From Trichoplax sp. H2 (lineage: Eukaryota), in contig NOWV01000135.1 of NCBI GenBank assembly GCA_003344405.1, forward strand, positions 62,001 through 126,000: a stretch of DNA of 64,000 nucleotides. The letters are read 5' to 3'. Below the pieces are notes generated by a model. The model made no database searches. It saw only the letters and a program-made list of their open reading frames with translations, and was not told the DNA's origin. Positions 37,385-59,370 of the stretch are shown here, one piece after another. The first letter of the stretch is position 1; every line of letters begins with the position of its first letter. The position numbers and the translations under genes were made by a program.

Positions 37385-38710
37385 TAGAGGCTGTTGTATG
37401 GCTCCGTACAGTAGTTTCGTCTCTATACTGGCAGTCAAGTATTGAATGTATCCTTCATTGAGACACGCACCCAGTGAAAACGATGACAAACCACTTCAAA
37501 ATACTAGGAGCTTCAACCTTGCTCAACGCTTGACAGTGTACTGTACAGTACTGCATACTGTACTGTAAGTTACTTTCTACGGTACTGTACAGTACAGTAT
37601 GTAGCTGGCTGCTGGCCATGGTAAAATAGTCAAATCAATCCAATCAAAATACTGTACAGACTGCAATCACCTACTGTATAAAGAAGGCTGTTGTATGCTC
37701 CGTACAGTACAGCAGTTTCCTGTGTACAGTATAGCCCTACTCAACTATGGAATGGATCAGTCAGTGAGAAAGCAACACGTACCAAGAGAAAACGACGACA
37801 AACCACTTGAAATTACTTGGGAGCGTCAACCTTGTTCAACGCTTGACAGTGGCTAGTCTACAGTGTACAGTACAGTAAGTTACTTTCCACGGTACTGTAC
37901 TGTACACTGTGTACTGTACCGTAGCTGTCCACGGTAAAATAGTAAAATCCAATCCAATCAAAATACAGACTGCAACCACCTATACAGAAGGCTGTTGTAT
38001 GCTCCGTACAGTACAGCAGTTTCCTGTGTACAGTATAGGCGACCTCAACTATGGGATGGATCAGTCAGTGAGAAAGCAACACGTACCAAGTGAAAACGAC
38101 GACAAACCACTTCAAATTACTTGGGAGCGTCAACCTTGTACAACGCTTGACAGTGGCTAGTCTACAGTGTACAGTACAGTAAGTTACTTTCCACGGTACA
38201 GTACAGCTGTACCTTGTCCACGGTAAAATAGTAAAATCCAATCCAATCAAAATACAGACTGCAATCACCTATACAGAAGGCTGTTGTATGCTCTGTACAG
38301 TACAGCAGTTTCCTGTGTACAGTATAGCCCTACTCAACTATGGAATGGATCAGTCAGTGAGAAAGCAACACGTACCAAGTGAAAACGACGACAAACCACT
38401 TCAAATTACTTGGGAGCGTCAACCTTGTACAACGCTTGACAGTGGCTAGTCTACAGTGTACAGTACACTAAGTTACTTTCCACGGTACTGTACCGTAGCT
38501 GTCCACGGTAAAATAGTAAAATCCAATCCAATCAAAACACAGACTGCAATCACCTATACAGAAGGCTGTTGTATGCTCCGTACAGTACAGCAGTTTCCTG
38601 TGTACAGTATAGCCCTACTCAACTATGGAATGGATCAGTCAGTGAGAAAGCAACACGTACCAAGTGAAAACGACGACAAACCACTTCAAATTACTTGGGA
38701 GCGTCAACCA
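37385..38710. repeat. Tandem array of a ~290-bp unit (about 4.5 copies, first copy degenerate)
   Basis: gaaggctgttgtatgctccgtacagtacagcagtttcctgtgtacag...ggatcagtcagtgagaaagcaacacgtaccaag...ttacttgggagcgtcaacc starts at ~37683, 37987, 38276 and 38561. A diverged copy starts at ~37387. Confidence 0.95.
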
Positions 38711-41700
38711 ATGGTTCGAGGAAACAGAGGGGAGAAAAAAAAAAAAATGCCCAAAGAAGGCGCGGTTGGACTGCCTCACAATCCGACAGTCATCAAGATT
38801 TCTCCTAATAGTAATGATTCTCATGCTGAAAGTATGCCTTGAAAGCTTAATTTTGCAGAATGCTATTGCCGCTCACTTATTGACTCTTTTTATTCAAGTG
38901 ACTAGCGTGACTGGATGTTGGAGAGTAATTGAGTTTATATATATATATATACACATCACTTTTAAATACGATCACACACACTTTGTTAGACGGTTTAATA
39001 TAGGGATGCAATACAGTTACACAATGGCTAGGCAGCAAGATGATCACCAATATTGTATAGGCCAGTGATCGATCTCGTCCACAGTTTTAATGGCGAATAC
39101 AACATGGAGGGACATTTTCTTGTTACCGAAATCACACGCTATGACTACCACTACAGTAATCTCCTTTCGAACGCTCCATTGGATAAATGAAAGCTTCAAC
39201 TAGCGATCCCATAATCTACTTTCTAACCCCTCCATTCGATAAATCAAAGCTTGAGCGAACGATCCAATCGTTTTCATCTTGGACAGCGGTAGTTTGGGGA
39301 TCATGATAGAATACGATAGAAATCTCAATATTTGGACACTTGAAATACATGGAGGATAATCTCCACTTGAATGTCGATACCACCAACAAGAATGATACTA
39401 TCCCATCCATATCCCTAATATAGCAATGGAAAGGAGTTCATTTCTCGATCATAGTGCTATTGCATTCACTGAAGAAGCCATGCTTCCAATAGCATTTCAT
39501 ACAAATACAAAACAATCTTTAACGTAGTAGTACACAACATGTTAGAACACACGATGAGAGTAGTTGATCGAAGACCGGATGTCAAAATTGTTATCACTAT
39601 AACACCTTTGATTGCTTGCGACTGATCTTTCTTTCCATCCTTACTAACCTAAAATCATATCACGTAGGTCAATTTACCTCCCTGCAGTTCAAGAAGTACG
39701 AGATGCTTTTCTAAATGATGGCTTTATACCTACAATACACAATAACCTGTAGCTTAAAAGACAGATCATTGCTATAGTACTACAGCTAATAGATGTGACA
39801 ATTTTAAACGAAGATACAGCATCTTGTTTAGATAACCTAATATTCTGGCAATTTGGACATCACCGTGATTGATATCTTGACCGTAATAACTACTGCCATC
39901 TTGAAAACGATCGTCAGTGAATGATCAATAATCTTGCCTCCTTCTTCTATTCATATAGGAAATATCGCAGAAATACAGGCATGCTTACAAATGATACGGA
40001 TTGAACGAATGAGGGTAAGTCAATTATTCACAGAAATTTTTCTGAATTTTTTCCTCCCTTCTTCCGAACTTGAATGAAGCTCTCTACCTTACTGATTAAG
40101 TTGTAAAATGTCAAGCAATGATATAAAGAGTTTGCGTATAAACGACTCTTCCTACTCTAACCTATATTTAAAAGAAGCAATGGATTGTGAATCCAACGTG
40201 ATAAAATGATTCGCTGGAGCATCGTTGTCATCAAAACAACGTACTGTAATGACCGGGTATATTTCAATGCTTCATTTCATATCCATCAATGCAGTTTTAA
40301 CATATTATTAATCAAGATTTGGATAGCAATGTTGTTATTGTTATCATAATACTTGCCCTTCCTGCCATACTTTATTCTAATTTGTCCAAATCACACACGA
40401 CTTTCTTGACGCCTTCCATAGAAAAGTAAGTCGATGAAAAGGAACTTTTTTTATCTAGTCTCGCAGCCAGGCTACTTTACCTAAATGCCTAATGATCAAA
40501 CACATCCCAACTTAATCACTTCCTGCCACGGTCCATCAGCTCATTTAATCAGTTGTTATAGATAGCAAAGATAAAAAAGCGTGGAAGCCAAAATCCACTA
40601 TGCACTTATTTGTTGTCATCGTTTGGACATACTCCCTTCTTAATTAGAGTAAATAAACAAATGATTCAATATCTAGACTTGTATGTTAATTCGTCATTTT
40701 TTTGGATCGGTATTTTCATTCCCCTGGAATCGACACAATACTCACTTGACTGGCGATCATCTTCACTTCCAACTTACTCAAACTATTGCTTTGCTTGTTG
40801 GAGAAGCAAAATTGTAATGCTGCTAATAATAATACCAATAGCGAAAATGGTGGTACTTCTTCTACTCAAAACTTGGGCTTGCCTGATGAATACGCTAAAT
40901 TTTTTTCAAGTAAGCTGGCACTTGTAGTTGGTCATTTGGTATACTTGTAAAACAAATTACCAGGCATTTTTTTCCTGTTTCATCGATATAAAAACAAATT
41001 AGTGATTATTAATTATACTGTATATTTTATTCTTGCTTCCTCTGATATCTTAAAAATATCTTATCAGTTGAATAGGATACCATCTATTAATAAATAGAAT
41101 TAGCAAGACTTACACATTATCGAAGAAGAGTATCTTTTTGCAAACAGTTCATTTATCTATCCAGCTTAACGCCTAATAAACTACTGTAGTGAACGCGTAC
41201 AATTGTACAGTTTACACCATCGAGGAATGGCATCATTTTCATGCTGTTGTTCGTCCTGTACAGTAACTCTATAACTACTACTGTAAAATCTAAATCCAAT
41301 TCTCAACGGCATTTGCAACTTGATATAGTCATTGTGAATTCGCTTAAACAATTGCTAATAGAGTTTCTATCACAATTTTTAGCATTGACTTACGTAATTT
41401 CACGACTTAGACCAAAATTGATTTTATTTTACTCCTTGGTATGATAAAGCTAAGAAGGAATAGTACCATTATAAAAATAATCATTTCATGTTTTTTCTTG
41501 ATTAACTGAAGGAGACTGCGATGGGACCGGTTCGCCAATTTGTCAGGATCCCAAGGTAACTTCTAAATTCAGCCGTAACGACAAATATTAATTTCAATTC
41601 AATTCTTTCAAATGGATGCCATATCAGTACTTCGCATGGTATCGACAGTAGTGCGTGTAAATAAATATCCGACATCATGCAATCCTCCAATTAATTGATT

Positions 41701-42040
41701 CACCTTCTTTAGTCATTTATCATCAAATTAACTTCCATCACCCACCACCATATACTGTATTTATTATTCTTAATTAGTGCTAAAACCTGACCAAGATATG
41801 ATTAACCTTATCTTGATATAATATATGATTATACAGCATATAAACCTTTGTCATTTTTGTACTATTTTTATAGGGAATCTTGGAACTGTTAGGAGGTATG
41901 ACCGTTTACAACAATATTAACTTTCAAAGTGAATAATTTCTTTAGCAAAAATATCGTGTTATCAAAATACTTAATCAGCAAGTGATCACGATGATTACTT
42001 GCGAGTTTCTTACTGTTTATAACACTTGATTAAATCAGCA

Positions 42041-45000
42041 ATGAAAGATATTTCACAACATTTATCTGTTACAGCCACAAGCAGCAAAAGCTTTTCACAC
42101 TATGAAGATATCAAGGATATAGACAAAATTGAGATGTAAGAGTTGAAATTTTTAACTTTTTCACACCATCATAATTATAACCTGTGAAATCAACATCAAA
42201 CCCTAACAGCCTCAAAAAAGGGCATAATAGCACTAAATCTCTGCGGGATAGGGAGGTAAAGTCAGCTGGAAGAAAATGTTTACATGTTGAGCTGGTACTT
42301 AAGCTAATTATTATATATTGTATTATATTCCAAACGAACAGTATCAAAGAAAGACCACAAAAAAGGAAAGAATGGATGCAATTACTGTAAGATTTACGTT
42401 TTATCTCAACACGATCCTTTGAAAGTTTTGAAGATAATGTAAATATCATCTATTTCAATGCTATTGATTAGGATGCTAAACAACAAGCAGAACGGCAACT
42501 TAATATTAGAAGTGATACAGTGAAAAAAGTAAGAGATATTCTGTAGAGTTTAGCCTTACAGCTCATCAGGCATAGAATATTTAGTTACCTTACGATAGGC
42601 TACAGCTCCTTGGTTGTCGACTTTGTTAAACTTTGCAATTATAGAGCTATATGTATTGTCAATAGATATGATATCACCAAAAGATATGTTTTAGTATTGA
42701 CTTCAATGCCTGTTATAAGTATATCCTCGTATAATAAACTTTTAAATCATAGCAAGTCACCAAGAAAGCTAAACCTGTTGTCCCTGTTGCAAAAGTAAGA
42801 AAGATATTTGTAATTGAACATTTTATATTATATTTTTTTAATGCTTGTAAACAGTTTGGATTAAATGATGACAAAGGATTAATCCTATTTCCTTACGTTT
42901 ATTACATCCAAACTAGCCTAAACCGAAAACTAAGAAACAACTTAAAGCTGAACAAAAAAGGCGTGAAAAGGTAAAAATCCTATGACTGTTAATTTAGATA
43001 GGTTATGGACTTGCTAACGATATCTATTATTCTATATTTATACTTAGGAAATGGCTGAAATAGCCAATAAATTAGAGGAAAAACAAAAAATCGATGAAGA
43101 AAAGGCTAAAGTAAAAAAGCAGGTAATGATTTTTATCAATAATGTACATTTTAAATCTATCAATCAATGCAAATTTTGATTACGCTTGCTCCAATTTGCA
43201 TCTACGGCTATCAAATAGCGAGAAGAAGAAAAGCAAAAATTATTAATGGAACAAGAAAAGTTGCAAAAGAAAAAATCTACGACAGCAAAACGATCAGAAA
43301 TAGAAGAAAAGTCAAACATGTAACTGTCAAACCATGTGTTTTTGTCCACATTTAAAATAAGGACATTAATAACTAGATATTATTTTAGGTTGATAAATGG
43401 CATTCTTTATGCCAATAGAAGTAACATGTACTTTCTTAACTTTTATTAGGGAAGATGCAGAAGATACAACTATCAGGTTTCCGTCAATATTTAATTGCAT
43501 GCTGCTGTGTACATTGTTTTACATGCACTCAATTTGTCCTCTCGATGTGCATATGCTTACGTTATTCCTTTTAATAACAGTGAAAATAAAGCAGCAGCAG
43601 TATTAACTTTGGAACAAAATAGTAAAAGAAATACTAAATCAAATGATTACACTAAACCAAATAACGAAAGTAATACTGATAAGGAACCATGCAAAGAAGT
43701 ATGCATCAGTCATTTTATTTTTACTTAATTAGTTAATAAAAAATCGACTAAAACTTCTTTCAATTCTCTAGGAGGTTGATCAGTTACTAGCTAACGGAAA
43801 TGGTATGTCAAGTTTTACGATATCATATTTACCTGAAAAACTTGTGTTATCTATATTATATTTACGATTGTTGAATTTTACAGATATAAATGAAGATGAA
43901 AATAAACCTTCGGTAAAACAATGGCTAATATAAAATACCCATTTACATGTTTATTTATTAAGCCTATTTATATTTCTTTCTTAGACATCACATTTATATA
44001 AAGATCCGCGAAATAAAAAAATCCCCTCTCAACGATATCAAGCAAATAATTCCACCCAAACAAGTAAGAATCTCATAAATGTCTTTAATTAGATATTACG
44101 TATTACTATATATAGCATTACATACTGTAAATTTGAGTAACTTGATTTTTTTTAGTGCTCATAATTGAGCAATAACGTTGTATAATTTTCTTTGCCTTAG
44201 CTACGACGAAAAAGAAGACAAATTACAGAAATAATTATGATAACACAGCTTATAGAAATAATGAAGGCCGTAACGAAAGGTACTACTACAACGATGAAAC
44301 AGCTAATACGAATTGGAATGATGAAAGACAAGATAAAACTAAAAATTATAATACTAGCAATCTAAGAGATAAAGGGCATAACACGGTTATGACCTCAAAG
44401 AATAATAATGACCTTAGAGGAAGAAGGGTGACACAGGGCTTTAACAATTACTGTGGTAGCGAAGACAAAAGCGTTAATAAAGTAAAAGGTGACAGGAAGA
44501 GCAATCCTCAGTTAACACATTCGATAAGAAGTGGGGATAATTACCCTTCACCTACTGAAAATTATAACGATCGGGTTGGAAGTAGTGATAAAAATACGAA
44601 AACTATCTATAGTAACCATCCTGTGAATCCGTATGTGAAAGGGCATCCAGAAAGAACCACAAAAGTTGAATGTGATAACAATGAAACTGATGTTGACGGA
44701 TGGATGGTGGCTTCCTCAAAGAAAAAAGTGAGGCAACTATAAACTGTGTTGAGGATTTGGCTATTCTTTCCTAATATTTAATATTACGTTATTTTTAGGG
44801 CTATAAAACTTCTCAGCCAAGTCAATTAGCTAATGTTGATAGTCAACAGTTGAAAACATTAATTGATATGGGATTCAAGGTAGAATATCATTTTATTACT
44901 ATTTTTTACAAAAAAAATTTAAATTTATTACAAAATCACTCGCAAGCAGCTACATTATACATATGATCCCAACAAAATTGGTGTTTTAATGTTGATTAAG

Positions 45001-47894
45001 ATTTAATCTTTATATTTGTAGAGGGAGAATGCTAATGAGGCTTTAAAATTAAATCATATGGATGTAGAAGCATCAGTAGGTAAATGAGAATACTCCTAAT
45101 GACAATATTAAGTGATCCTATGTAGCTAACAAAATTTTACGTAGTAATTAATCTACTGCTTAATAATTTTTAGCCTATCTGCTATCAAGAAACTATAAGG
45201 ATGATAAGGAAACAGCCAGTAGCACACGTGAAGATCTTTCCTCATCTCCCACAGCCTTTGCTACGGAGATGCAGACAGAAGTAAATAATAAAGGACATGA
45301 GCCTGTCAACGTAATATCAACAGATGACGAATCGGGAATGATTACTGAGCGCCAAGAAAGCAGTGATGCAGCAGAAAATAGTAAATACGTTGGTGTTGAT
45401 CCTTTAGAAGAATTAAGTAGATCTTCTGTTGATAGTTCAGCAAACGACTATGCAAATATATCGAACACGTCATCGCCTCAAATTGCGACGATCGTATCTA
45501 AACAACCTTTGAGACAGGTGCCAGTACAACAACCACAAGGACTTGTTCCTCCAGAAATATTAGCTTTATCACAAGGAGTACTGCAATTACAAAATATGCG
45601 ACAGATTATATTACAACAGATCACCCAGCAGCAATCTGGAAAGGCAACATTAACTCAACAATCACAATTACATAATTTAGTTATTGAAATACAAAGACGG
45701 CAATATACAATTATGCAATGGCAAATATCAAATCAAATACCATCGCCAATAATTCCACAAGAAAATCAGACAGGAAGTTTATTGCCTAATACAACTATGG
45801 ATATGCATTTACATGAACCAGTAACGCGAGATGTATCATTAAATAACTACGCACCTAATACTAATTCTACCACTAGAAGAGATATTAGTATTAATAGTTC
45901 TGACAACGAACAATCGCAGCAATTCTATTCAAATTCAAAAACCGAATCTCGAAATTTTAGCCATGGTGTTGACGATTATCAAAACGTTCAAAAACTAAAA
46001 GATAATACTTCATCAACCTATCTCTCAAGTCATGATCCAAATTCTCAGGATACCAACGTATTTAACTTACCGAATATAAATAATTTATCAGGCTCAAGAC
46101 CAAACCATAGCAACACAATGAATAGACGAGAAGAAAAAAACGCGTTATATTCACCATTAAATAGTAATGCAAATAATAATAGTAGTAATAATAATAATAA
46201 TAATAATAATTATAATAATACAATACGTAGTCCAGCTATGGAAACTCGAATAGGAGGCTCTTCTCATCCAGAGAAATTGCCAACAAAATCGACTCGAACG
46301 TTGGATGTAAATGATATTCCAGATAATAATATTATGGACTCGTCAGAGGGATGGTATAAAGACTTATCGAACAATGTAAACTGGACACAAACGCCACCTT
46401 TCGATGATGACAATACCAATGCAACAACAGCAACGGCCCAAAAAATGGCATCCATATTGGCTAAAGGCGAAATCCGCCCATTTGAACCTGGTACTCCTTG
46501 GAAGCCTATTAATGAAGTTACGGAAGAATATTTTAACGCTGATATTCATACAATTAATGAAAGAACTTCAAATAATAATCTGGAATATTCTTTGAGTGAC
46601 CAACGAATGCCTATGCAAAGTATTCAAAATGATATTAAAACTTCAACAATTGATAATTTGCAGCCAGGGTTGCATTCATGGATTGAAAATACGCGAACTA
46701 CTGACAGTGACAACAACAACAACAAAATTGCTTCATTACCACCTGGTTTATCATCTGCCGCAAATCCGTTATCTTCCCATATGAGTTCAAATCAAATTGC
46801 TGCAACTACAAATACTTCTGTAAAAAGCAAGGCCCAAGAATGGTCGAGTTTTCCAGCTGTGTCTAATCTAATGTTTTCTCATAACTTGAATAACTTAAGT
46901 TCTAATGAGAAAGATTTAGAAAATATATGGTCAAATGCTGAAGAATCGATGTTCCCCAATGATTCTAATGTTAAATTCGGTATTACTAATAATGATAATA
47001 AAAGTAAAACACAATCAGGTTGGCCATCAAGTATCACGCAAGAGTCTAGTTTTACTAAAGAATCTGTAGTTAATATTGAAAATAATAATCTCTCAAGTTG
47101 GCCGTTAGATGCTTCGCAACCATCTAATTTCTCTAGTGATTTAAATATTAAACCTAACAAAAGTAGTAGCAATAGCATCAAAAGCCAATCTGGTTGGCCT
47201 TTAGAAAATGAAAATCTATCATCAGAATTCATTTCCAAACCGAATGTTATGCCATCGTTATCGATTCTTATAAAGGGATTTAGTTCACAGGTAAGCTGCT
47301 ATCTTTGTAAATTTGTAATATAATATATTATGGCTATCAAAATGTTAAGTTTGCTATACGATCATACTGTATAACTAATAATACACAAATAATCATCATG
47401 TACAGGTTGATGAGAACTTACTCCAAGCGCTCTGCTTACAACATGGTAGAATCACCGAATTCGTATTTGACCCTCGAAAGCGGGCAGTATTCGTTAGCTA
47501 CAGTAGCGTAGACGAGGCTGTAAGAGCTCAATCCAGATTGAACAATTGTAAGATTATGGATTCAACATTGGAAGCATCATTTCCACTAACTAAGATTCCA
47601 GCATCAAATGAACCAATAACGCCAACAGAAAGTGGGCATTCATTACAATGGAACCACTCATCAAGTGCGAATAATAATCCTCCTGAATTAAGTAGCTCTA
47701 CGAATTCAACTATGGCTATAAATAGCAATTATCGTGTTCTAAATCCTAATGGTAGCAGTCTTTTTCCCAATACAAGAAAGGAGGCGTGGTCGCATACGCA
47801 TAGTAAGCCAGTTAGGACAGTTGATGACACAAAGATATTTACTCCAAGCTCATTCTTGCAAGGCAGCCCATTTTATGATCAGCAACAATATTAA
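42041..47894 (+). CDS. TNRC6: GW182/TNRC6 (Gawky) family protein: K/E-rich N-terminus, UBA, Q-rich, PAM2, Trp motifs, RRM
   Basis: UBA: QLKTLIDMGFK|RENANEALKLNHMDVEASVAYLL (44799-45190). A Q-rich block follows. PAM2: EIRPFEPGTPWKP (46466-46507). GW182-type RRM: ILIKGFSSQ|VDENLLQALCLQHGRITEF..AVFVSYSSVDEAVRAQSRLNNCKIMDSTLEASF. About 14 phase-compatible exons link 42041 to the UBA. Small extra 5' exons (~41615-41638, 41874-41895) are possible. Confidence 0.88.
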
Positions 47895-50243
47895 AATTCG
47901 AAATCAGTCATCAATTAATAATTTTATTTGAAAGACTTTTCTAATAAACCAGCTATTTTCATTTTAATTGTGAGGATTTGTAAATTTTGTCTTTAAATAC
48001 AGCCGCATCAAACTGATTAATAGCGTATTTTTAAAATTTGACCCATTAAACTGTAGTATACTGTGTAAAATATCAGCTATCATAGTACGTAACCCACATT
48101 ATGTAACTGCATTGTATAGCAGTTTCTATGTCGTGTAGAATCACTGGACAACTTAAAATATTTCAGAATTGATGCATTTGAGTGCAACTCATTAGCTTTT
48201 TTTTCAGATAAATTCATCCCTACTGGGAATATCAATTTACATTTAGTGATTTTTAATTCTACAGTATATACTTTGCTTTATACCCAAATTTAGTTATAAG
48301 ATGGATGGTGAGACTGGCAACAATTTATATGGCAATGCAATTTGGGAAGTCATCACAGCTTTAAATTTGTAACAAAAGTAGAAACTAACTTCTCCTGATC
48401 TTATATACCTTCACCTAACTTAGTGAATATAATTCACTTTATATTTCTAAATTCTTCATAGTAAGTCTTCTTTAGCAAACAATAGTTATCGATGGTCATT
48501 TCTAGTCAACTATGTCCTATTATCTGTATATCGACCAATAATGAAAGACAATTGCAAATGTAAAATATCAAAAGAAAAGATTAAGTATATCAAACGTCGG
48601 GAATTAATCTATTAATTATAATTATAAAGTATCATGCAATCCGTTAATGGATGTTTCTTATTTACGTGGCCTGTACTGCTAGATAATTTTCCTTCGTAAT
48701 TTATGACAAACGGGGCAAACAGTAGTTACCTAATTTTATAAAACCATTTTATGTTGCAATGGCAAATGACGAATACCAAATAGCGACACTAGTCTAGACT
48801 TGATCATGTATTAAGTACTCAAGTCAAACAGTCTTAGCTTAACTTGTTAATTGTAGCCTGTACCTAACTATTCAATGATCTACTAACCTAACAATAGATA
48901 ATTTAATGCTCAATAGATGCACTAAGTATTCCATAATCATAGTACCTTTGATAACATACACCATTATATTTAGTGCCTAGAAATGATTGACCTGTCATTA
49001 AATGTTAATTCATACATTGAAACTTTAACGATAGACAAATATAATACGAGAAAGCCGAAATTTTTTAGATTCTGATCGGCCAATTCTAACAGAAATATAT
49101 TGATTACAGTAATAACAGAACATCAACGTGGAGTATAAACGAACCACCCTTGAAACAACACCGGTTACTTTTATTCAATGCTACCACAAAGGAGTTATAA
49201 AACTAATCAGCACACCAAACGTCAGAGAAAAAATTGCATTATGTTAATTTTGCATAGCAGCAATGAATATACTGTACATAAGTATGCTTTAATGAACACT
49301 TATAAGTGTTATAATAAAATAGTCGATACGTACAGATATGAAAATTAATTCTAAAATAGACATACGCGATATCAAGCGTGAAGATAATCAACAACAAATT
49401 TTTGTGTGAAACCCTGTCACATCTAGTGATCATAATTACAATTATTATAAATTCTTTCTTATACATTGTGCAGTAACTCTATCCTAGTAGGCAGATGATA
49501 ACTCCATAAGACAGTTCTGCATCTTGGAATTAATACAGCACTAGCTGCAAGTAATCAAACTTGTGATTAATAAATATCTTCTAAGGTGTATCAGATAACA
49601 TTGATATAATTGTCTCTATGTCAAAATAAAAATTATCTCTGGATGAATTTAGCATGCATAATTTAAATAAGAAATCATCCATATTATACTTTAATAGTAT
49701 AAGACCTGATGATTTTGTAGTCAAGTTGACTTCTTGACAAAACACTCTAGTGATCAAGTACTTATATTCAAATCGATGATACGGCTAACTAAAATGAGCG
49801 TTATAACACTATTTTCAGCTACTCTTTAAGCTAATTCATTATTATCTTCATAAATGTCAATAGAATATTTGCATATAATTGAAATTTTTCAACGAAATGG
49901 TAAGTTAATAAAATCGATACTGAATTATTTTTCTTTGCTTATGTATAGGAGCAAAACTATGGGCTAACAATCACTACGCATCGGCTAAATACTATTTTAG
50001 GCATTGGTGCTTATAAATGTGAATTTACCCAAATAGGACAATCTTCTTATGGATAGATAGTATAACAAGACAGATCATCATTATAAAATAAATTTTCGTT
50101 TATGTCAATGATAATCATATACGACTATACCAGATCCCTATGAAAAAGTTATAAAAATTGTGCTACAATCTGAGTAGTCGTAATGTGCTATATCGCCGTA
50201 TTACCCCATAAATTTGAAAGCGTTTAATTCTTGGAATTGTGAG

Positions 50244-53200
50244 TTAAGATATTGCTATTTCTGTCATTGTATTGCCCATCAATGCAATCTTATAATCTAT
50301 CATGTGAGGTAAAACGATAGTTTCCTATAAAGACATGATATCATAACAATAATTAATGTTAGACACGATACAAAATCGTTATTAGCGTAAATATTTATCG
50401 TCGTTGCTTTAAACTAACCTTAATTTCATGGCGCAATTTTTTCTCGATCCAATCTGTAATATTTGTCAATCTAACTTTACGTTCACCAAGTTTCGGTCTA
50501 ACTGACATCAATACAGTCGGATTGCCACGAAAACCGTACCTACAACAAGGTCAAATTTATTATTATCCATCGTTTAGCTTTATATCATTTTCCATAAAAT
50601 TTTTAATATCTATTTCATATTACTGTACAATTTAAAATATAAACTTGTATTGAACAACATACCGGTTATATAATAATGCATAGAGAGAGAGAGTGAGAGA
50701 GATTAAAGTAATGAAGTAATTTAATATGCAAGTATTCTACTAATACTTTTACAATCTGATCTTACATATACTTTTCAATTTTACTTCAACAAAACTAATG
50801 ACTACGTCGAACTTTAAATCAATTTTACATACCATAAACGATCCGATGGTGGAGGAGGGATATTAAGGGCTAAAATGCCAGTTACTGATTGGATCTCGAC
50901 AGCAAGAATTATTGGAATATTGGATACCCTTTCGGCAGCTTTCTGAGCTAGTCTTGAATTTGTTGCTTTTTGAACTATCTTGGATTTTCCTACTTTTTTA
51001 ATAAAGCGAGACCACCGACTATTTCCGTTGTGTTGTGAACTACCACTACTTGAGGAGCTAGATTGTTTCTCTAGAGTTGGATCATCCGCTTCATCATCAG
51101 ACGATTCAGAATCAGATTTATCTAGCCCTTGCAGTGTAAAAATTAAATCATTTTTGGATGGATCAGTTTCTTTCTTCGGATCGGTTACCTCCATTTCACC
51201 ATCTGGTTTTTGCCGTGTTATATTAAGACTAGTTTCTAGAGCTATAGTAAATGATCCATGATAGGAAACATCTAAATCGATCCATAATCCCCTTTCGTCC
51301 AGCGTAGGAGAAGAAGCACCACGAATAGCTGGTAATGAGCCACCAAGATCTAAATCAGTCACTATTAATTCTTTAATATAATTAGGTCGATTTAATTTGC
51401 TAATACGGCGCTGGATTATATTCACCATTTTATCCGACCAATACTTTTCACGCCAAAAATCAAAGAACGCCCTTCCAAGTAACGCATTTAACCACGATAC
51501 TACTGACGTTTCTACCGGATTCTTACCAGCTGCGGGTTGCTGTTGCTTACTTTTAGGCTTGTTATCCACTTGTAAAATTAATTTGGCCATATAACGCGAA
51601 TAATAAATTGCTTGCATCTCGGCGAAAGTTTTTGATCGGTTGGGTTGCACATTAGGATGGCTTGGGGGATATACTTTTGGTTCTTTATCGATTGGTAGTG
51701 TCTCTTCCTTTTTACTTTCTGTACCATATTGCAGTCGATAAAACCAATATTCCTTATCATGGCTTGTGGTTGCAAATAAATAGAAAGACCTATCCTTTTC
51801 GCTGTCGATATTTGGTGAAGGATCAACAGTAGGTAGTTGGACTTTACCACTAGCCGGTTGATATTCTAAAGGACTTTTATCAACAGCCGCAGTCGGTGCT
51901 CCTGAAAAGCTTTTCCCCTCAGCTAAAGTTATACAAATTGGGTATTTTTTACTCCATAATTTATTTTTACTTAATGTTTTTGGTATTAATTGTATCTTTG
52001 CATTGGTTATATCTAGTAATTTTTGATTCACAAAAGAGACATTCCACTTTTCAGGTTTAAAAGGTATTGTTAGATCATCACTTTGTGGCTTTGATAATCT
52101 TAGTACACTACCATCTAAACGAGCATAAATACAACGTAAATCAGTCTTGTAATGTTGATCTTGATCATATTTTCGTTTTCCGTACATCCATCCCTAAAGT
52201 TGAAAAAAAATACAGTAATTTATGTCGTCAGATAAGGCTCGTACTATTCCATGCAATGAAGTTAAAATGAACTTTTCACTTTAATAATTTATTAATATTT
52301 TCTCCTTTGAAATCATGTCGTCATTGCATATGGATGACTTAACACTATCATGATTGCTTGTCTTTTTAAAGCGAAATACTAAGCATTAAAATTTTTTTTA
52401 CGATATTAGAATATTAATACAACAACGAAAATTATGATTTCACGCGTATGGTATTTAACTCACGTTAAGCAATCAAATCTACTATCGACTAGATTTAGTT
52501 TTGCTAATTCTACTAGAAATGATTCATTTTGGATGTATTTTGAAAAATAAATTAAACGTATTACGGTACCCATTACTACTTTAATAGAACTACTGACACT
52601 GTAATTATTTCCGAAATAAGTATAGTCTATCCAGTCATATGAAAATTAATATTCAATAACGGATTATGATTGTTAATCATTCGATTGCAACTTTGTAAAT
52701 TTTTTTTTTTTTTCAATTTCTCCCTTCCTATTCTCTACACAAGTTGGTATATCGATAGATGTATGCGTATAGCCAGTCAGGCGTAGACGATGAAATATAC
52801 AGAAAAAAAAGAAAAATTAACTTACCTTAACTGTGGTTAACTGTTGTAATCGTGAAATGTAACTGTAATGAAATGGTGGTGGTCGCGGTGGAGGCCGACT
52901 TGTATCTTCAGGTGAAAATGATGGTAATGATAACCAGACAAAAAAGGATAGTAAAAAGTACATGACAAAAGCTCCTGTTAATAATCCGTGCCAAAAGGGT
53001 GATATTGGCAAAGCATAAATGCTATAGATACAAAATGATATTGCAAAGATCACTGTCGCCGATATATTGGAATGGTCGGTATTCGATATTGCCTTTGAAC
53101 GTGATTTATCCAGTAAAGTTGGTTTTTTGAATTGACCACCAAGGGATGGTGGTAAATTGGCTAGAAAGCCTGCATGGCTGGATGTAGGTAACTCAGCTTT

Positions 53201-57696: not shown

Positions 57697-59370
57697 CATA
57701 GCCATCACCATACTAATGTACCTATCCAAGCCAACATCAACATAAGCATATATACTTCATCTTATTCCATCCATCATCGTTCTAGTTGTCCAGCTGCTTT
57801 GGATTGATTCATACCGTTGTACACAGTATGCTGTACAGCTAAAAATAGNNNNNNNNNNNNNNNNNNNNTTCTTGCTTGTGCTGTGGAGTGCAACTGTACG
57901 CCTACAAATGTTTCCAACCATGGCTATCCACTCGTGAATTCGGTCTGCTGTCCAACATCCATTCGTCCACCTACCCCAATCAAATGATGATAGTTTAAAA
58001 GTATACCTGGAGAGCCCTTTCAGCAAAGGATATTCATTCTTTCTGCCCGCTACTGCTATTGCTAATCCTCCATCCATAAATGCTTACTGCTATCTCGGCC
58101 ATGTGTCCTAACTACACTTTATTCGTACTGTTGATCATTGACTAGTCAATGCTCCAATATCCTACCTATGCTGTACTGCTAGTTATAAAGTATACCTGTA
58201 GAGCGTTTCAGCAAAGGATATAAATTCTTTCTGCTCGCTGAGTACTGTTAATCGTTTACTCGTCAAGGTTCCTGTATCTTACGATGCAGCACTACTAGTT
58301 CTAATCGTCCACCTACAGTATCAATCCTTTCTGCTACTGCTTAGCTAGAATGACCATGTAAACGCTTCTTCTACCCTTACTGTGAATCGGTCAATGCTCC
58401 CCTATCTGTGATACNNNNNNNNNNNNNNNNNNNNCCATAGCCATCACCATACTAATGTACCTATCCAAGCCAACATCAACATAAGCATATATACTTCATC
58501 TTATTCCATCCATCATCGTTCTAGTTGTCCAGCTGCTTTGGATTGATTCATACCGTTGTACACAGTATGCTGTACAGCTAAAAATAGGGACACGATCAAG
58601 TTACTTGTATATGTTTCGTGTACATATTAAAATGAAGGTGCAAGACTATCCACAAAGTATCCCTGATAACTCTGTGATAACGAGAGATGAACAAATTTTA
58701 ACCATCCACTTTTAAATGCACATCAATTTGTTTCATACTCTTGTAAAATGTTTCTTGCTTGTGCTGTGGAGTGCAACTGTACGCCTACAAATGTTTCCAA
58801 CCATGGCTATCCACTCGTGAATTCGGTCTGCTGTCCAACATCCATTCGTCCACCTGCCCCAATCAAATGATGATAGTTTAAAAGTATACCTGGAGAGCCC
58901 TTTCAGCAAAGGATATTCATTCTTTCTGCCCGCTACTGCTATTGCTAATCCTCCATCCATAAATGCTTACTGCTATCTCGGCCATGTGTCCTAACTACAC
59001 TTTATTCGTACTGTTGATCATTGACTAGTCAATGCTCCAATATCCTACCGATGCTGTACTGCTAGTTATAAAGTATACCTGTAAAGCGTTTTCAGCAAAG
59101 GATATCAATTCTTTCTGCCCGCTACTGCTATTGCTAATCCTCCATCTGTAAATGCTTGCTGCTATCTCGGCCATGTATCCTAAGTACACCTCATGAGTAC
59201 TGCTAATCGTTTACTCGTCAAGGTTCCTGTATCTTACGATGCAGCACTACTAGTTCTAATCGTCCACCTACAGTATCAATCCTTTCTGCTACTGCTTAGC
59301 TAGAATGACCATGTAAACGCTTCTTCTACCCTTACTGTGAATCGGTCAATGCTCCCCTATCTGTGATACA
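57697..59370. repeat. Near-identical ~0.9-kb direct duplication spanning two 20-N assembly gaps
   Basis: 57697-58414 matches 58435-59370. N runs are at 57849-57868 and 58415-58434. The duplicated ORF MDGGLAIAVAGRKNEYP appears twice in the ORF track. Confidence 0.9.

Follow-up and report, generated by a model that had tools for sequence, protein, structure and literature searches.

A placozoan GW182/TNRC6 orthologue that keeps its silencing modules, has lost nearly all GW repeats and may retain an ancestral N-terminus

In the usual view, GW182 is the obligate effector of animal microRNA (miRNA) silencing, and its tryptophan (Trp) repeats grip Argonaute. Trp motifs of the protein are described as binding CCR4-NOT and PAN2-PAN3 in Nematostella and bilaterians (text of PMC5314787), and the PPGL motif of human TNRC6 as binding the GYF domains of GIGYF and thereby 4EHP (text of PMC10187677). 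A GW182 orthologue of Trichoplax adhaerens, one gene in Placozoa, has already been listed (Zielezinski & Karlowski 2015, PMC4615383, as stated in its text). Here we describe the GW182 gene of Trichoplax sp. H2 in a window of 64,000 nucleotides (nt), or 64 kb (GenBank assembly GCA_003344405.1, contig NOWV01000135.1, positions 62,001 to 126,000, forward strand), to which all coordinates refer. A first-pass annotation made from the sequence alone had seen in it a rewired or ancestral form of the silencing effector. The orthology, the lack of GW repeats and the retained silencing modules held up, and the new N-terminus and the ancestral form did not: the protein looks eroded, not rewired, with an N-terminus that would be ancestral. 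We tentatively prefer the reading, at a probability of roughly 0.45, that it would still be an mRNA-repression scaffold whose Argonaute coupling is cut to at most one low-valency site.

The window protein is 99% identical to TRIADDRAFT_53746 (P0001; 1438 amino acids (aa)), which sources label 'UBA domain-containing protein'. This was the sole match when the big exon was searched among longer proteins, and proteins of near-equal length to the 705-aa big exon (45173-47287) gave no match. A phmmer search with the C-terminal 912 residues returned 47 matches at E <= 0.001, with source names that include Gawky, TNRC6B and an amphioxus UBA protein. Of the 14 matches scanned with Pfam, GW182-specific families (M_domain, TNRC6-PABC_bdg, Ago_hook) were called in nine; P0045 shows the motifs of the GW182 family, and the other four are generic multi-RRM or SPOC proteins. 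When the whole protein was searched against solved structures, the two best matches were the RRM of Drosophila GW182 (2wbr, E 7e-7) and the UBA of human TNRC6C (2dkl, E 5.7e-6). Five modules match collinearly, and on this basis the orthology first annotated is solid and the gene is the single placozoan GW182/TNRC6 orthologue. Because its N-terminus lacks the GW/WG-repeat Argonaute-binding domain, we class it, from its sequence, as an orthologue by descent and not as a typical GW-repeat member. A literature search for the locus tag TRIADDRAFT_53746 returned nothing.

The gene is thus real and was catalogued before, and the analysis confirms that its GW repeats are almost completely lost. Of the 14 Trp in the RNA-supported protein, only two precede the UBA, within a stretch of 502 residues that holds one GW and no WG. 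These are W349 (44314-44316, TNWND) and W478 (44701-44703, DGWMVASSKKK), the same two Trp that were noted at first in a region then put at about 440 residues. In four full-length bilaterian orthologues, the pre-UBA region has 23-31 Trp and 14-25 GW/WG, and its Trp share is 2.9-5.0% in four full-length orthologues versus 0.4% in Trichoplax. In a jellyfish orthologue, the count for this region is 11 Trp, and six of those cluster within residues 427-494. The absence of a GW/WG-rich open reading frame (ORF), first noted for the upstream DNA, extends to the entire window: among 1065 six-frame ORFs of at least 30 aa, none besides the big exon has more than one GW/WG. Furthermore, tblastn of the 64 kb with the jellyfish and amphioxus orthologues found known exons only. 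As far as searches show, this loss is not stated in the text of published work: literature on GW182 with Trichoplax or placozoa gave no passage stating it, and Fig. 5/Table S1 of PMC4615383 may show a low predicted Argonaute-binding score.

In contrast to this depletion, the C-terminal two thirds appear to have a full set of the known effector modules, arranged as usual. The UBA, the Q-rich region, PAM2, about ten C-terminal Trp motifs and the GW182-type RRM had all been read correctly from the sequence, and a PPGL motif was found as well:

44841..45190, + strand: UBA domain, spread over exons 44799-44879, 45022-45079 and the start of 45174-47290 (Pfam; 2dkl; contigs bridge the exons)
45497..45751, + strand: Q-rich stretch, 22 Q in 85 aa (residues 641-725) (composition; Pfam M_domain, which marks this region in arthropod-type members, unmatched at E 10)
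46352..47789, + strand: nine W-motifs, [GST]W or W[GST], at W926, 936, 1035, 1089, 1118, 1149, 1175, 1207 and 1366 (motif definition of PMC5314787)
46475..46507, + strand: GW182-type PAM2, RPFEPGTPWKP (F.PG..W pattern)
46736..46750, + strand: PPGL (P-GL) motif, LPPGL (family spacing after PAM2)
47261..47585, + strand: GW182-type RRM, split by intron 47291-47405 (2wbr; hhalign; joint 47286 to 47402 in 4/4 runs)

With the whole protein, Pfam called the UBA at 24.4 bits (cut-off 22.4; E 2.6e-5) and a borderline RRM (RRM_1, 20.4 bits, just below the 20.7 cut-off), and nothing further even at E 10. The RRM aligned to the GW182 alignment with an hhalign probability of 97.2%. The F.PG..W pattern occurs exactly once per protein in 11/11 GW182-family proteins checked, Trichoplax included, and PPG[LIV] lies 86-130 aa downstream of PAM2 in 10/11 of them (86 aa for LPPGL of Trichoplax). 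After the UBA there are 12 Trp, nine of which fit the [GST]W or W[GST] definition given in the text of Mauri et al. 2017 (PMC5314787); the four full-length bilaterian orthologues have 13-17 C-terminal Trp and the jellyfish orthologue nine. Both Trp of the C-terminal tail and the end motif are also kept in P0003, a 112-aa fragment (47% identity) from a second placozoan-like relative. From these modules we infer, by analogy with the family, that PAM2 would bind PABP, that PPGL would bind the GYF domain of GIGYF and thereby 4EHP, that the nine Trp motifs would bind CCR4-NOT and PAN2-PAN3, and that the RRM would be of the non-RNA-binding type. The protein would then still deadenylate and repress mRNAs to which it is brought.

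The same Trp motifs raise an alternative, namely that Argonaute binding is fully kept and has moved, with Trp pairs in the middle and C-terminal parts serving both Argonaute and deadenylases (W926/W936, 10 apart; SGWP/SSWP/SGWP series). According to the text of a review (PMC9262622), a binding site requires a pair of Trp separated by 10 residues or more, and the Trp spacings of 10 to 60 residues in S/N/T-rich sequence would suit this. However, Argonaute- and CCR4-NOT-binding Trp motifs are reported as functionally distinct (text of PMC5314787), and 12 C-terminal Trp compare with 9-17 in orthologues with a full N-terminal domain; nothing looks added. We consider relocation improbable.

Contigs from four runs, each of a different study, were aligned to 38740-48700 and show a gene that is transcribed and spliced correctly; one run is recorded as RNA, and the three further runs, whose contigs are without the introns, were presumed to be RNA. 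The 15 of 22 GT..AG joints that were listed are each present in 4/4 runs, and the remaining 5 of 20 introns were deduced from contig arithmetic, a loose end at 42387 and alignment to P0001. The arithmetic concerns 136 nt between the 44201-44727 piece and the piece from 45171 onward in X13, X9 and X4, which equal the two small UBA exons. The resulting model (39991..47894, + strand) has 21 coding exons, 20 GT..AG introns and an intact frame of 4203 nt that encodes 1400 aa. Its exons from the start to the last one before the UBA, and its stop codon, are:

39959..40014, + strand: first coding exon, first in-frame ATG at 39991 (MIRIERMR...) (joint 40013/14 to 40806/07 in 4/4 runs; ORF reconstruction)
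40807..42135, + strand: four N-tip coding exons, 40807-40909, 41512-41555, 41874-41895 and 42075-42135, with no Trp and no J domain (GT..AG joints in 4/4 runs; match to P0001)
42210..42794, + strand: four small exons, 42210-42255, 42342-42386, 42472-42528 and 42753-42794, before the lysine/glutamate-rich (K/E) module (joints; loose end 42387 continuing into the start of the 42472 exon)
42917..43319, + strand: exons of the conserved K/E module, 42917-42970, 43048-43122 and 43219-43319, reading in turn PKPKTKKQLKAEQKRREK, EMAEIANKLEEKQKIDEEKAKVKKQ and REEEKQK... (identity to jellyfish and amphioxus; three-way alignment)
43581..44063, + strand: four small exons, 43581-43698, 43772-43802, 43884-43912 and 43985-44063, an N/K/T-rich linker (joints in 4/4 runs; composition)
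44201..44727, + strand: exon 17, N/R/Y-rich, with both N-terminal Trp, W349 and W478 (sequence reconstruction)
47892..47894, + strand: stop codon (frame reconstruction; RNA contigs extend to 47967)

One 2160-nt X13 contig runs from the 39959-40014 exon through 45680 and joins the first exon to that point; therefore the K/E-rich micro-exons and the UBA belong to one transcript. The tiny exons of the first-pass annotation are thus real and part of this gene, and do not form a separate one. Its start codon, ATG 42042, has to be abandoned: it lies inside intron 41896-42074, and all four runs join 42075 back to 41874-41895, 41512-41555, 40807-40909 and the exon ending at 40014, so that four further coding exons lie upstream, the three between these ends being absent from the earlier model. 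At a tandem acceptor (AG AAG, 40801-40806), the RNA contigs of the four runs are spliced to the distal AG, whereas the JGI model takes the proximal one; the contig reading has one Lys fewer than P0001. The runs differ from the window by 50 changes, of which 40 are listed; 12 of these 40 fall in coding sequence, 7 being synonymous and 5 non-synonymous (a weak hint of purifying selection), and two of the 12 fall in the N-terminal third.

These data bear on the possibility that the Trp-poor N-terminus is an annotation artefact, with Argonaute-binding exons far upstream or a split gene, or that the gene is a decaying relic without function. The 5' end is not fixed, the searches were confined to the 64-kb window, disordered regions evolve fast, and the second placozoan-like relative was found only as the 112-aa, 47%-identical P0003. 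Against this, the 64 kb contain no GW-rich ORF and no extra tblastn match to the orthologues, and a 289-bp tandem repeat occupies 37463-38709 just upstream; the frame is intact across 21 exons and correctly spliced in four studies, the coding differences split 7 to 5 in favour of synonymous changes, and P0003 keeps its two C-terminal-tail Trp and end motif. Both variants are therefore very improbable. Nor does any option for the 5' end add a Trp. The ATG of the JGI model (38747) lies upstream of the contig starts at 38803, and its putative first exon, 38747-38831, would add 38 residues without Trp; the contig of one run reads 38803-39141 straight across the donor of this exon, and depth there is low in X13, which is no evidence against the exon.

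We asked where the N-terminus comes from by searching with residues 39-526 of P0001. Besides itself, there was one match, P0056 (database-wide E 3.9e-5), a protein of the jellyfish Rhopilema esculentum with the source name 'titin homolog', a DnaJ domain, a UBA, a PAM2-like motif, PPPGL and an RRM. This domain set is the cnidarian GW182 architecture described in the text of Moran et al. 2013 (PMC3840309) and Mauri et al. 2017 (PMC5314787). By BLASTP, the K/E core (PKPKtKKQLKAEQkRREKEMaEIA...) matches residues 193-254 of P0056 with 63% identity across 62 aa (E 3e-14) and residues 82-139 of the amphioxus protein P0011 (C3ZJT1) with 64% identity across 58 aa (E 2e-16). None of 1000 composition-preserving shuffles of the core reached the score (z 15-19). 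Further collinear matches to P0056 were found for a GW..ASSKK element together with the UBA (E 1e-10), the RRM (E 2e-5) and PAM2 (E 0.04). The K/E module (42917-43122) is the best-conserved stretch shared by Trichoplax, jellyfish and amphioxus, at 63-64% identity versus 27-38% for the RRM and UBA matches. The new or rewired N-terminus that had been proposed is contradicted by this collinear identity far above shuffles; judged from the alignments, the module is an old part of GW182 and the N-terminus would be ancestral. The module was not found in the tick, mosquito and TNRC6B sequences or in two further unnamed sequences. A long vertebrate TNRC6A isoform has a charged, Q-rich N-terminal extension. 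The GW182 literature examined has no description of the module; a K/E module common to placozoan, cnidarian and amphioxus GW182 departs from the family history given there.

In both relatives, Trp clusters lie between the K/E module and the UBA, with 11 Trp before the UBA in jellyfish and 23 Trp and 20 GW/WG in amphioxus. Because of these clusters, the simplest reading of the Trp-poor state is secondary erosion through losses along the placozoan lineage rather than an ancestral or a rewired condition, and the ancestral form proposed at first is unlikely; this reading of loss rests on one cnidarian and one early chordate sequence. The two relatives have more in common. P0056 (368-380) and P0011 (215-230) share the motif YPREVPPRF, with 0/500 shuffles reaching the score. 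Residues 1-30 of P0011 form a J-domain-like start with HPD that aligns to the jellyfish J domain (P0056 13-66; 4/500 shuffles reach the score); a Pfam scan of P0011 at E 0.01 gave no DnaJ call. The DnaJ domain is stated as confined to cnidarian GW182 in two published papers; unlike these statements, an architecture of J domain, K/E module, YPREVPPRF and GW repeats may not be restricted to cnidarians. In Trichoplax, DnaJ had no Pfam match at E 10 and tblastn found no J-domain exon in the 64-kb window. A candidate J-domain remnant in the N-tip (ILELLGA..GHN) was rejected, with local scores of 29 against a shuffle mean of 33 (jellyfish) and 21 against 23.5 (amphioxus), as was a YPREVPPRF-like motif, which was not significant.

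Some Argonaute coupling may be left. In a MAFFT alignment, W478 falls in a Trp column that is invariant in 8/8 GW182 sequences, 25-45 residues before the UBA. Pfam Ago_hook matches in P0007 and P0011 include this column; that of P0011 scores 20.5 bits, less than the 25-bit Pfam cut-off. A conserved basic patch follows W478, which is also covered by the BLAST matches to jellyfish and amphioxus. One Argonaute-binding site requires at least two Trp at least 10 residues apart (text of PMC9262622); the Trichoplax N-terminus has exactly two Trp, and C-terminal pairs such as W926/W936 also exist. A table in PMC4793324 lists one Argonaute and two Dicers for Trichoplax. From this we infer a remaining site that would consist of W478, as a remnant of the Ago hook, and W349, compared with three sites in bilaterian proteins. 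The first-pass statement that the Argonaute-binding GW domain is lacking is thus right for the GW repeats and goes too far for Argonaute binding itself.

Several observations weigh against this preferred reading. MAFFT pairs Trp with Trp in low-complexity sequence, so that the invariant column is suggestive only. The surroundings of W349 do not fit [GST]W or W[GST], and its homology to the last Trp of the jellyfish cluster was rejected (E 6.3; pre-UBA region score 49 versus a shuffle mean of 49). In the Trichoplax protein, Pfam Ago_hook, as well as M_domain and TNRC6-PABC_bdg, gave no match even at E 10, and the Ago-hook check thereby agrees with the first annotation. Pasha and recognisable miRNAs are reported absent from Trichoplax in the text of PMC3563456 and PMC3840309, in line with the earlier statement that placozoans are reported to be without miRNAs. 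In addition, the 5' end is not fixed, as contigs cannot show a start; the ORF and tblastn searches covered 64 kb, and a separate GW-rich partner gene may lie elsewhere in the genome; and the comparison covered one cnidarian orthologue, no sponge and no other full-length placozoan orthologue.

Some of these points would be met by an adaptor independent of Argonaute, which would not bind Argonaute at all; another partner, perhaps through the K/E module, would bring the half that recruits PABP, CCR4-NOT and GIGYF to mRNAs, and the module would be an old, uncharacterised GW182 function that outlived miRNA loss. The two pre-UBA Trp, the missing Ago_hook match and the reported absence of miRNAs and Pasha (text of PMC3563456 and PMC3840309) agree with it, as does the K/E module as the best-conserved stretch, whose 63-64% identity versus 27-38% for RRM and UBA implies strong constraint on the module. 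However, jellyfish and amphioxus have the module beside large Trp clusters, and in these animals it therefore does not replace Argonaute binding. The Trichoplax protein also still has the invariant pre-UBA Trp, and no partner of the module emerged from the ESM Atlas or Pfam, in which the N-terminal part has no usable match and no family, respectively. We regard an Argonaute-independent adaptor as somewhat unlikely. A stronger form holds that GW182 has an old miRNA-independent job and that the K/E module alone, as a second recruitment or assembly interface, could bring the effector half to mRNAs in Trichoplax. This is clearly unlikely; if true, Trichoplax would be a natural separation-of-function mutant that reveals a role of GW182 apart from miRNA silencing.

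Taken together, we favour a scaffold with reduced Argonaute coupling. Its N-terminal third would descend from the ancestral GW182 N-terminus, with the K/E module and the invariant pre-UBA Trp kept, and the J domain and the Trp/GW cluster, which flank the module in relatives, would have been lost in Trichoplax. Argonaute coupling would have been reduced once Placozoa had lost the miRNA pathway, and the near-absence of GW repeats fits an animal reported to be without miRNAs. An animal without miRNAs that has an intact, spliced and apparently constrained GW182, with the silencing half kept and the Argonaute repeats nearly gone, is a natural experiment on how much Argonaute coupling GW182 needs, and on any Argonaute-independent role.

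The DNA upstream of the first coding exon suggests one more feature:

38803..38831, + strand: possible short 5' leader exon (27-nt surplus of X13; X4 and X9 contig starts; GT after 38831; acceptor 39958)

At its 5' end, the 2160-nt contig of X13 has 27 nt that the exons from 39959 onward do not account for. X4 and X9 have contigs starting at 38803, a GT stands directly 3' of 38831, and a strong pyrimidine tract with an AG acceptor is found at 39958. If the 29-nt leader is real, the spliced 5' untranslated region (UTR; 38803-38831 plus 39959-39993) would contain a 17-codon upstream ORF whose TGA overlaps the main ATG (..AATGA..). Most of the 1.2 kb 5' of the first coding exon is covered by unspliced RNA contigs of three runs (38803-39141, 39211-40014), which might represent first-intron retention, an extended 5' UTR, or a transcript that is separate or antisense. 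Minus-strand ORFs at 38877-39924 were considered as an upstream neighbour gene and set aside, as they match no Pfam family. The 289-bp tandem repeat that fills 37463-38709 has 4.2 copies with 89% matches. It is taken as a dispersed repeat family, because many short ORFs near 34-38 kb and 5.5 kb share a 'CTVQYS'-type reading with it. Farther away, the minus strand has an exon of a TCP-1/cpn60 chaperonin subunit (2474-2746; Pfam E 3.7e-19) and a 459-aa ORF with an SMP/MMM1-type lipid-transfer domain (50817-52193; E 5.9e-8). Two 20-N assembly gaps (57849-57868 and 58415-58434) flank near-identical minus-strand ORFs (57760-58083 and 58736-58966).

Compared with bilaterian GW182/TNRC6 (human TNRC6A-C, Drosophila Gawky), the Trichoplax protein has the same order of UBA, Q-rich stretch, PAM2 (F-x-P-G-x-P-W-K), PPGL, Trp motifs and RRM, and the invariant Trp before the UBA. 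It differs in having 2 Trp and 1 GW before the UBA versus 23-31 Trp and 14-25 GW/WG, in lacking Pfam matches to Ago_hook, M_domain and TNRC6-PABC_bdg, and in having the K/E module, which the tick, mosquito and TNRC6B sequences do not show. With the cnidarian GW182 of Rhopilema, it shares a collinear K/E module, GW..ASSKK element, UBA, PAM2, PPGL and RRM, and a similar C-terminal Trp number (12 versus 9), but it is without the J domain, YPREVPPRF and the Trp cluster. The GW182 of Nematostella (nvGW182) binds Nematostella Argonautes via several N-terminal regions according to the text of PMC5314787, whereas the Trichoplax protein is known here from its sequence. Amphioxus GW182 (Branchiostoma floridae C3ZJT1) likewise has the N-terminal K/E module, with a GW..KKK element, UBA, PAM2 and RRM in collinear order; unlike Trichoplax, it has 23 Trp and 20 GW/WG between module and UBA, the J-domain-like start with HPD, and YPREVPPRF. 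Finally, AIN-1 and AIN-2 of C. elegans are described as functional analogues of GW182 with a divergent domain set and reported as non-orthologous in the text of PMC4615383. Compared by description only, they show that the function of the GW182 family tolerates large changes in architecture; the Trichoplax protein, unlike them, is an orthologue that has kept its UBA, PAM2 and RRM.

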